64,000 nt of DNA from an uncultured Bacilli bacterium (GTDB lineage: Bacteria; Bacillota_I; Bacilli_A; RF39; UBA660): assembly GCA_934096275.1 (NCBI GenBank), contig CAKOLK010000001.1, positions 15,876 through 79,875 on the forward strand. Reading direction: 5' to 3'. The notes under the pieces are model-generated. The model made no database searches, had not been told where the DNA came from, and was given only the letters and a program-made list of their open reading frames with translations. The translations under genes were made by a program, and so were the position numbers. Positions 32,177-33,870 of this stretch are shown in pieces. Within the stretch, counting starts at the first letter, position 1. Every line of letters begins with the position of its first letter.

Positions 32177-33870
32177 TTATAAACTTAACTTATATGGATC
32201 AGAACTAGTACCATTTCCACCTGAAATCTTTACGTTAGATGAAAGATAAAGGACTGGGCGCACGACATACTCGCTGCTGATGACGTCGTCGCTTTCAAAG
32301 ACAAAGCCACCCGCCACACCGAAAGCGCCGGTGGAACCATCTGAATACTGCGGAAGTAACCATGTAGTTTCACTTTTATCTAACCAATTGTTTGTTGTTT
32401 TGCAACTTGCTGAACCATCATAATTATATAAGTTGCTTGTACATTCTTTTGATGCTGCATATCCATAATCACTTGCATACATTAGTGCTATCTTTTTATT
32501 TGCATCATTTTGCATTATTGGATTTGTTTCATAATAATATCCTGCCCTATTAGACCTATTTTTTCTTTCATATTGCCACATTACATCTGATGTTATTTCT
32601 GAAGTATTGTATCCTCCGAGATAATATTTTGTTGTTCCTATCATGTTTTTTGCATCAGTACTTAATGTGTTATAATAATCATTGTTTAAATATGTATTTA
32701 GTGTTCCTGTTACCCAATTATTATATGAGTTAGTTGTTGTGTCTTTTGTAGTATTCCATTTCATATTTCCTATTGAGGTATCTCTTATTATTTTTATTCT
32801 GTTTTCTACATTACCATTTGTATCTTCAGTAGGTATTATTCCTATTATTCTCCATGTTTCATTATTAAATGTTACATAGTTATTTACACTTCCTCCACGG
32901 TATCTATACTCTGTTGCAAACTTGCTGTCTACTTGCAATGTATTATCTATTGTATGAGTTATTTGTTCAAGTCCATCAGTACCAACTTTAGCTTGTGCAA
33001 ACTCTGATGCAGTAACTGGTACAAATGGTTTTTCATCACTTGCTTCAATATTAAGTGCATATTTATATTCAATAGGTTTTGTTGTATCTCCATTTACATA
33101 TAAATCATTATTAGTAGCAGCATTACTTATCCACATTATTATTTCATATTCATGTGTTTTTCCTTTTTCTAGTGAGTTTTCTATTAAGAATGTATCTGGG
33201 TTTACATTTATTATCTCTTTAGTTGTTGTTTTTTCTTCAAGCGGAGCGCCTGCTGGAAAAGTCACAGAATTATCTAAAATGTAATCAAGTATTAAATCTG
33301 CATCTTCTTTTGTTATTTTTTTATCATCATTTACATCTGATGCTGATAAGGTATATTTGCAAGTATATGCTTCATCAGTGGAAAGATTTTGTGTATATTG
33401 CATATCTGAACCATCAATTTGGTTATCTCCATTAGCATCACCAAGTTTATATGTCATAGTATTTTGTTTATCTACTACATGATATTGTATTACATCTTTG
33501 TTTATAGATGAGTTTATTAAATCTTTTATAGTTAATTTATAATACGCTGTATCACATGTAGAATTATTAGTTATAGTAACTGTTTTAGGTTTATAGTCTC
33601 CTTCAAGGGCTTGTCTTGTAGATATAGGATACTTACTAACTAGCATTAACTCATCACTTTCTTTAAAGTTTATATCTAGTTCACATTTAGATATTTTTAT
33701 ATTTCTTCTTCCTAGTAAGTTAATACTTGGATTAAACAAAGCAAAAGAAATACTAACTATTATTAGTACTAAGAATATTATTATAGTTATTATCTTTTTA
33801 TTTCTTCCTTTAGTTTTTAAAGGGTTATAAGTATTTTGCCCCCCCCCCCATACGAATTATTGTTTGTCAT
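32177..33870 (-). CDS. poly-G-gated surface-protein family, member 2 (extended N-terminal region with dockerin-like repeats plus the shared C-domain); phase-OFF in this assembly
   Basis: GGAGG (33878-33882), 7 nt, ATG at 33870, then MTNNNSY plus G11 gives MTNNNSYGGGGKILITL-stop. G12 or G9 would fuse to ..QNTYNPLKTKGRNKKIITIIIFLVLIIVSISFALFNPSINLLG.., which is the ORF-track protein 32177..33739. The C-terminal 280 aa is homologous to members 1, 3 and 4. Confidence 0.8.
33839..33849 (-). repeat. homopolymeric G11 tract of member 2
   Basis: Hand count: gcc + ccccccccc + a gives 11 C on the plus strand. Confidence 0.85.

Follow-up and report, generated by a model that had tools for sequence, protein, structure and literature searches.

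How does a bacterium with a very AT-rich chromosome come to end one of its surface-protein genes in a short, GC-rich patch of C-ending codons? The question is raised by positions 32264–32347 of a 64,000-nucleotide (nt) stretch of contig CAKOLK010000001.1 from an uncultured Bacilli bacterium; the whole stretch that was analysed is called the window here. The patch is called member 2, its counterpart in a paralogous gene of the window being member 1. Our answer, to which we assign a probability of about 90%, is that the patch is the variable region (VR) of a target gene of a diversity-generating retroelement (DGR) and forms the DUF6273-like C-terminal end of a membrane-anchored surface protein. 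The reverse transcriptase (RT) that rewrites the patch is encoded outside the window, and member 2 is a remote, trans DGR target.

The patch, its boundary string, and the host gene all lie on the minus strand. The reverse complement of 32264–32347 is 84 nt long and translates as YSDGSTGAFGVAGGFVFESDDVISSEYV. As counted in the initial annotation, which was made from the sequence by a model, the patch has about 55% GC (54.8% on recount), 14 of the 28 codons end in C, and only 14 of the 84 bases are A; nine further codons end in T. The window as a whole has 26.8% GC, and in the remaining 464 codons of the same open reading frame (ORF) the GC content is 28.7%, with 32 codons (6.9%) ending in C. 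The GC level of the patch is reached by 0.18% of the 84-nt segments of the 64 kb, which fall in four places:

13661–13785: the tail of a Gly-rich gene
26334–26447: tRNA-Met
32264–32347, minus strand: the patch of member 2
49542–49631, minus strand: a GC-rich patch of a second type, described below

The string GTGCGCCCAGTCC occurs exactly twice in the window, at 12255–12267 and 32251–32263, both on the minus strand; the boundary string noted initially as identical in the two members is therefore found at these sites only, and the count stays at two when two mismatches are allowed. The chance expectation from shuffled sequences is 0.04 matches, and none of 100 shuffles reached two. As the comparisons given below show, the string is the 3′ end of the homology between the VR and its template repeat (TR). 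The elements of the locus are as follows:

32177..33870, minus strand: target gene (member 2), with an ATG near the Shine-Dalgarno (SD) sequence at 33870, a poly-G tract, a transmembrane (TM) anchor, a dockerin-like segment, a DUF6273-like C-terminal domain with the VR, and the stop at 32177
32254..32355, minus strand: VR, the whole TR-homologous stretch, from TTCCGCAG to ...GTGCGCCCAG
32273..32347, minus strand: mutable core of 25 codons, YSDGSTGAFGVAGGFVFESDDVISS, with NNY codons, derived from AAY codons of the template, in alternation with fixed scaffold codons
32251..32272, minus strand: conserved 3′ boundary GAGTATGTCGTGCGCCCAGTCC, resembling an initiation of mutagenic homing (IMH) element, identical to the TRs through CAG and then T in the VR versus C in the TR
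12255..12351, minus strand: VR-like patch of member 1, in the paralog 12181..13257, with a boundary string identical to that of member 2

The fixed scaffold codons of the core are TCA, TCC, GCT TTC, GTG, GGC, GTC, and GTC. The pattern GAGTATGNCGTGCGCCCAGTC is found in six VR copies from other genomes and in both VRs of the window. The listed VRs end in CGCCCAGTCC, whereas the listed TRs end in CGCCCAGCC, after which an unrelated spacer follows; in the cassette family described below, the TR ends read ...CGCCCAGCC(C)-TTAAAAA. Two exceptions to this boundary were observed, a VR with CAATCC (CGCCCAATCC) in the related contig L012 and a TR with GGCCAGCCC in L019 (related contigs are given L numbers). 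Judged by these ends, the VR appears to carry an IMH-like 3′ element that differs from its TR counterpart (IMH*), as is expected for the VR of a DGR.

Scanning one genome per species for the boundary string gave the six further VR copies, which are located in four metagenome-assembled genomes (MAGs) of uncultured Bacilli from Hadza gut metagenomes. They occupy the same site of homologous genes and show NNT or NNC codons alternating with fixed codons. The first genome-wide pattern, GAGTATGNCGTGCGCCCAGTC, matched VRs only and no TRs, because the TRs end in CAGCC and not in CAGTC. A template was predicted by setting the variable sites of the eight VR copies to A, which gave TCCAACAACGCTTTCAATGTG. 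A scan of metagenomes with TCCAACAACGCTTTCAATGTG led to L012 (26.7% GC), which encodes an 895-aa homologous target with a VR and contains an intergenic A-rich copy about 300 nt downstream. Thus, the check proposed in the initial annotation, to rebuild the implied template and search for it, was successful, the match being an intergenic TR beside a homologous target gene. The TR and the VR of L012 differ at 23 of 102 positions, 21 of them TR adenines. Two other contigs, L008 (viral, 44% GC) and L013 (58% GC), were discarded as chance matches because they have no gene homology. The L012 cassette locus was also considered as a syntenic counterpart of member 2, which was rejected since the C-terminal domain alone matches (88%).

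The fit between templates and variable regions was measured on neutral global alignments, which do not favour adenines:

L012 TR against its own VR: 21/35 adenine sites changed, 3/67 non-adenine sites changed, 0 gap columns
L014 TR against its own VR: 16/33 adenine sites, 2/66 non-adenine sites, 3 gap columns
L022 TR against its own VR: 21/35 adenine sites, 0/64 non-adenine sites, 6 gap columns
L028 TR against its own VR: 16/36 adenine sites, 0/66 non-adenine sites, 3 gap columns
L028 TR against the patch of member 2: 19/34 adenine sites, 5/65 non-adenine sites, 3 gap columns
L028 or L016 TR against member 1: 21/36 adenine sites, 13/63 non-adenine sites, 3 gap columns

For the patch and the L028 TR, which comes from a related contig of the same sample and lies outside the window, the concentration of changes at adenines gives a Fisher p of 2.7e-7. 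Compared with the TRs of L028, L012, and L016, the patch has 18–19 substitutions at TR adenines, 5–6 elsewhere, and one 3-nt gap. Because the differences from the L028 TR are adenine-specific, and those from the L012 and L016 TRs similarly so, we infer that a DGR wrote this VR, using a template closely similar to these three. The cognate pairs of L014 (3602–3700 versus 4201–4300), L022 (~2000–2105 versus ~2290–2395), and L028 (~9330–9440 versus ~9715–9820) show whole-codon length differences (3, 6, and 3 nt, respectively) in AAC runs, with non-adenine substitutions near zero. Such indels hint that slippage of the RT on AAC repeats, or a change of TR length, supplies extra variation.

The related gut contigs that carry cassettes have 25–27% GC and the gene order target, TR, MutS-like (MSL) ORF, Avd, and RT. 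In L012, a 119-aa ORF (ORF119) and an Avd-like ORF are located downstream of the TR. Homologs of ORF119 form 13 protein clusters with avd adjoining and led to further cassettes, and complete ones (target, TR, ORF119, bAvd, and RVT_1) were found in L014, L016, and L025. ORF119 matches Pfam MutS_I over residues 3–52 with E values of 6e-3 (L016) and 8e-4 (L028), which are below the 20.6-bit cut-off. The Avd ORFs in L014, L016, L017, and L025 match Pfam bAvd and NCBIfam DivGenRetAVD, also below threshold (E=2.7e-8 for DivGenRetAVD); by these matches, the related cassettes appear to possess the Avd partner expected of a DGR. The RT adjoins the TR in L014, L016, L025, and L028, matches Pfam RVT_1 with an E value of ~1e-18, and has the motifs IGNMTSQ and YMDD. 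Its best match in the PDB is 8ub7_A (a 328-aa ‘Reverse transcriptase’), which ranks above group II intron and retron RTs and which we take to be bRT of Bordetella phage BPP-1. The cassette enzyme is thus probably a DGR-type RT. The patch had been described initially as adenine-templated and hypervariable in the manner of a DGR; its differences from the TRs lie almost all at adenines, and related cassettes with Avd and RT exist, both of which agree with that description.

A sister DGR was observed in L017 and L018, contigs of the same study series from gut Bacilli resembling Erysipelotrichaceae. Its order is ORF85, ORF118, bAvd, and RT, and its target and VR type are different (...LRPVLSLG). 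The repeats of L017 are located at 1019–1137 and 1474–1592; the TR of this sister DGR ends in CGTCCAGCC and the VR in CGTCCAGTC. The T/C discriminator after CAG is present here too.

The C-terminal domain of the target matches 1029 database proteins at E<=1e-20, and column statistics were taken from the best 120 of these homologs. The mean entropy is 2.21 bits at the patch columns and 0.58 bits elsewhere. Within the patch, 15 hypervariable columns (3.0–3.5 bits) alternate with nine near-invariant columns, which correspond to TR codons without A. Residues K, E, Q, M, and W make up 1.6% at the hypervariable columns and 33% at other variable columns, and their scarcity matches the prediction of AAY-templated mutagenesis. 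The patch strings are highly diverse, 105 distinct ones being found in the 120 homologs. Hypervariability across homologs thus appears confined to adenine-templated codons. This is the opposite of ordinary divergence biased toward third codon positions, which the initial annotation had named as the result that would speak against its proposal.

By analogy with the established DGR mechanism of Bordetella phage BPP-1 and other systems, the TR would be transcribed, and RT together with Avd would make a cDNA copy with misincorporation opposite adenines. This copy would then replace the VR directionally with the VR-specific 3′ element as a guide. AAY-templated codons would be randomised to NNY in this process, and scaffold codons would be left unchanged. 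Such writing would explain why, in a 27% GC genome, the patch is GC-rich, uses NNC codons, and is poor in A.

Several results weigh against the DGR interpretation. When both strands of the window were scanned with the two patches, with tolerance at A, no TR was detected, the best non-self match having at least 19 non-adenine mismatches, and a six-frame search of the window for an RT found no [YF]xDD motif in an open context. Past the window ends, about 10 kb on the high-coordinate side and about 8 kb on the low-coordinate side (L007 and L009) contain housekeeping genes and neither a TR nor an RT. Since no TR or RT is present in the window or in the flanks read, member 2 is assigned as a remote, trans target. 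Physical linkage of a cassette with the window was not established, the continuing contig being k141_274708. The fit of the patch to the best TR is imperfect, with five non-adenine differences and a codon deletion. L026, L027, and the window all have the same VR of member 2 (VR2), with no sign of ongoing diversification, and the L002 copy departs from it by only 2 nt, the adjacent 500 nt being 97–99% identical. No significant hairpin or cruciform was found after the boundary (z-scores ~0). In the protein, the DUF6273 match of the member 2 copy (E=0.002, 18.3 bits) is below the 23.5-bit cut-off, the VR lying at the C-terminal end of the domain, and an AlphaFold2 model of the C-terminal domain was unusable (predicted local distance difference test score, pLDDT, of 41.7).

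The most GC-rich intergenic segment, 26325–26457, was tried as a TR and rejected, as it is tRNA-Met. The window belongs to a bacterial chromosome, with PolC and DnaE inside and housekeeping genes in the flanks. In three scans of a viral collection, neither the VR end nor the predicted TR nor the TR-spacer string had a related match, and a phage origin of the cassette is not supported. Promoter and terminator scans around the TR and past the member 2 stop were uninformative in the AT-rich DNA.

Could the patch have arisen without reverse transcription? Segmental gene conversion among DUF6273 paralogs or silent cassettes, in the manner of pilS or vlp, with GTGCGCCCAGTCC as the recombination boundary, would fit the presence of at least four to six paralogs in the window, their mosaic identity and conserved upstream repeats, and the mosaic identity along the gene between L002 and the window. 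However, the window contains no donor copy of the patch, and the variation is limited to AAY-templated codons and avoids K, E, Q, M, and W. Moreover, conversion does not predict adenine-specific differences from an intergenic, non-coding A-rich copy, and we regard it as very improbable. Even less credible is ordinary divergence under diversifying selection, or the horizontal acquisition of a GC-rich segment, with no dedicated mutagenic mechanism. Positive selection is common on surface lectin-like domains, and the GC content of the patch is foreign to the genome; however, this explanation has to contend with a 22-nt boundary that is identical across genes whose flanks are 75–88% identical, with invariant and hypervariable codons that interleave exactly according to the A content of the TR, and with the existence of cognate TR-Avd-RT cassettes.

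Under the DGR interpretation, the origin of the write and the present state of member 2 can be considered from a cassette of the same sample. L028 is contig k141_498421 of sample ERZ27287251. Besides RNase III, it encodes an 894-aa target that includes a VR, ORF124, and a 369-aa RT, and it contains the TR. The same sample contains k141_480215, which corresponds to positions 279–45,707 of the window and has its exact proteins and identical VRs of members 1 and 2. The exact L028 RT and the strain-specific proteins of the window occur on three contigs each in the NCBI and ENA data. L028 (111,332 nt) was considered as the continuation of the window and was rejected because the continuing contig in the sample is k141_274708 and not k141_498421. 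Nevertheless, L028 probably belongs to the same genome as the window, and its cassette is the likely source for member 2. At L028:10001–10375, a deletion of ~287 nt fuses ORF119 to the last ~25 residues of Avd; most of Avd is removed, and the RT (369 aa) is intact. The deletion looks recent because the VR of L028 itself keeps 0 non-adenine differences to its TR.

Ongoing diversification of the member 2 copy was not observed between close strains. In this lineage, the patch seems to have been written some time ago and to be static at present, because it has five non-adenine differences and a codon deletion, does not change between samples, and lies in an out-of-frame gene, and because L028 has lost Avd. 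An alternative with the same DGR origin is that the system is still active, and that member 2 is a live trans target rewritten rarely or conditionally by a cassette elsewhere, possibly from a second TR that fits exactly. Its IMH-like boundary is intact and the same as in VRs that adjoin their cassettes, and the 0 non-adenine differences between the L028 VR and its TR point to recent TR activity. The three assemblies with identical VR2 may represent one strain, in which case the identity says little, and one of the two L002 differences (ACC/AGC) is at an inferred template-A position. The same features on which the static reading is based stand against this alternative: the imperfect fit to the sole same-sample TR, the mere two differences to L002 despite 1–3% divergence of the flanks, the largely deleted Avd of L028, and the frame of member 2 in this assembly. 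We therefore consider a live target unlikely, though by no means negligible, and prefer the older, static write.

The relationship between the two members was re-examined. Without gaps, they differ at 39 of 84 positions (14, 17, and 8 at codon positions 1, 2, and 3), whereas flanking 30-codon blocks of the two paralogs show a third-position bias (e.g., 2/1/8, 1/2/5, and 1/0/6). The count of 39 differences in the initial annotation was reproduced, but the template of about 54% A derived from it does not stand, since the ungapped comparison is invalid and real TRs have 34–36% A. The two members have compensating one-codon indels relative to the template family and are not colinear. Member 1 has 13–16 non-adenine differences from every recovered TR, and its indel is at a different place from that of member 2; its 22-nt 3′ end is intact, and its patch is identical in L009 and L010. 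A single template for both members was rejected on account of the compensating indels and of these non-adenine differences. The initial caution that separate templates or older events might be involved was therefore well placed: since the patches are not colinear and member 1, with at least 13 non-adenine differences to each TR, fits none of those recovered, the two probably have separate templates. The sequence argues for member 1 having been written from a different, unrecovered template, rather than having decayed.

The target belongs to a family in the window. At least four paralogs (12181..13257, 32177..33739, 40867..41940, and 44535..45611) each have a TM anchor at the N-terminus and a DUF6273-like domain at the C-terminus, and two further genes, 49507..51726 and 56374..57969, share their N-terminus. 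The long ORF of member 2 is listed from a TTG at 33739 (32177..33739), with the patch at its 3′ end. Sub-threshold DUF6273 matches were obtained in 40 of 44 family members, and a profile search of the C-terminal domain against PDB sequences gave no match; a lectin-like fold of the target domain is suggested by these DUF6273 matches and by the literature on such domains (PMC10743442). Two paralogs and the poly-G tract of member 2 are relevant here:

44535..45611, minus strand: paralog that is not a target, with the same amino-acid scaffold over the patch-equivalent region, AT-rich codons, and no boundary string (GCAATACGCCCAACA)
40867..41940, minus strand: further paralog without the boundary string
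33839..33849, minus strand: poly-G tract of 11 G (G11), as against 10 G (G10) at this locus of L026 and in the other four paralogs

Poly-G tracts were found in five paralogs (13213–13222, 33839–33849, 41929–41938, 45567–45576, and 51808–51817, minus strand), in each case seven codons past the SD-proximal ATG. Four are G10 and that of member 2 is G11, and in this assembly the reading frame of member 2 is broken at the tract. The same-strain copy of member 2 in L026, which comes from another sample, has G10 and is called as 557 aa. The SD-proximal ATG is in frame with the long ORF solely at G9 or G12. Another ATG, which overlaps the tract, is in frame at G10 and has no SD sequence; it is missing in copy 51808 and in the L001 and L005 orthologs. 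Through slipped-strand variation, the poly-G tract may act as a phase switch on DGR targets, the G10/G11 contrast being a single case (member 2 here versus L026) in which an assembly error is possible. A literature search yielded no paper linking DGR targets with homopolymer phase variation.

A broader scheme may be drawn tentatively, although we hold it for doubtful as a whole. At least five paralogous, membrane-anchored lectin-like proteins would be subject to two stacked variation systems, an ON/OFF switch at the poly-G tract and trans rewriting of the 3′ patch by an MSL-Avd-RT DGR. At the modal G10, the SD-proximal ATG would be out of frame. Paralogs would gain or lose target status via the CAGTCC boundary, with different paralogs using different templates, and the A-to-N repertoire would be widened by length differences arising from frequent codon indels between cognate TR and VR.

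Other features of the family were observed. Member 2 has an insertion at ~33275–33445 (minus strand; residues 99–155 of ORF 32177..33739) that is absent from the 358-aa paralogs and matches dockerin type I just short of the threshold (E=1.3e-4, 22.5 bits versus the 22.9-bit cut-off), which hints that the protein is attached to a cohesin-like partner at the cell surface. Non-coding repeats are located upstream of the paralogs (13258–13661, 33900–34306, 41977–42455, 45611–45677, and 51859–51963), with 66–100% identity to a reference copy. Within them are an inverted repeat rich in GC, GCGACGTCTCTC...GGAAACGTCGC, and the element TGAAGCTGACGTTCA...GAACGTGCTTC; the repeats may serve the family as common regulatory modules or terminators. 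The patch at 49542–49631 (minus strand) is the C-terminus of ORF 49507..51726; it is of a second GC-rich, NNY-rich type, FRGGIYYNGDYAGAFFFNTSDGEAHSDYSTRAVL, and equals the main patch in GC. Its equivalent in 56374..57969 is AT-rich (31.5% GC). The 49542–49631 patch is probably the VR of another DGR template type; the search for its TR found none.

The core mechanism contains nothing new, as the literature already describes MSL and Avd cassettes, remote targets, and DUF6273 targets. Cassettes with MSL and Avd, and remote targets, were described by Wu et al. (2018, NAR 46:11; PMC5758913), in whose survey the MSL-bearing DGRs also carry avd (‘Architecture D’). As in those DGRs, the TR, a small MutS-like ORF, avd, and RT are located on one strand beside a target with a C-terminal VR, the differences are A-to-N, and the putative MSL ORF and avd occur together (L012, L014, L016, and L025). 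In contrast to them, MSL is recognised here by a sub-threshold Pfam MutS_I match (E=8e-4 to 6e-3), the hosts are uncultured, very low-GC gut Bacilli, and the MSL of L028 is fused to the Avd tail.

The Treponema DGR has seven remote targets, and some DGRs have targets more than 100 kb away (PMC5758913). The present system resembles those of Treponema denticola (TvpA) and Legionella in its chromosomal, apparently non-phage cassette and in scattered paralogous surface targets, each with a VR and a conserved 3′ element. However, Treponema was placed in the HRDC architecture (PMC5758913) and its accessory genes differ; its targets are of the TvpA/FGE-sulfatase type and not DUF6273, and members 1 and 2 of the window need different templates. 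The DGR of Bordetella phage BPP-1 (Mtd/TR/Avd/bRT) shares with the present system the adenine-specific differences, the C-terminal VR on a probably lectin-like domain, the Avd and RT pair, and a GC-rich 3′ element common to TR and VR that is followed by VR-specific bases (IMH versus IMH*). Unlike BPP-1, the present system is apparently not phage-borne, its order is target-TR-MSL-avd-RT and not target-avd-TR-RT, no significant hairpin follows the boundary, and a TR and its cognate VR often differ by codon-length indels. DUF6273 domains are reported to be C-type-lectin-like DGR targets in gut phages (PMC10743442). Those of the tentaclins and of Faecalibacterium prophages (PMC10743442, PMC11792537) are phage tail proteins, whereas the proteins described here are a cellular, membrane-anchored, multi-paralog chromosomal family with a 5′ poly-G tract.

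In this study, a GC-rich island is given a definite annotation, as a remote DGR target in an uncultured, little-known lineage of human-gut Bacilli found in Hadza and other gut metagenomes. Windows that contain only a VR are recognisable from their sequence, and the template is predictable by filling the variable sites with A; searches keyed on the VR 3′ string miss TRs, the end of which differs by one base. The target and non-target paralogs, the Avd-deleted cassette, and the frameshift-prone poly-G tract form a natural series that is usable for studying the recruitment, retirement, and regulation of DGR targets. AAY-templated codons are systematically diversified across the DUF6273 protein family, which has over 1000 database relatives at E<=1e-20.

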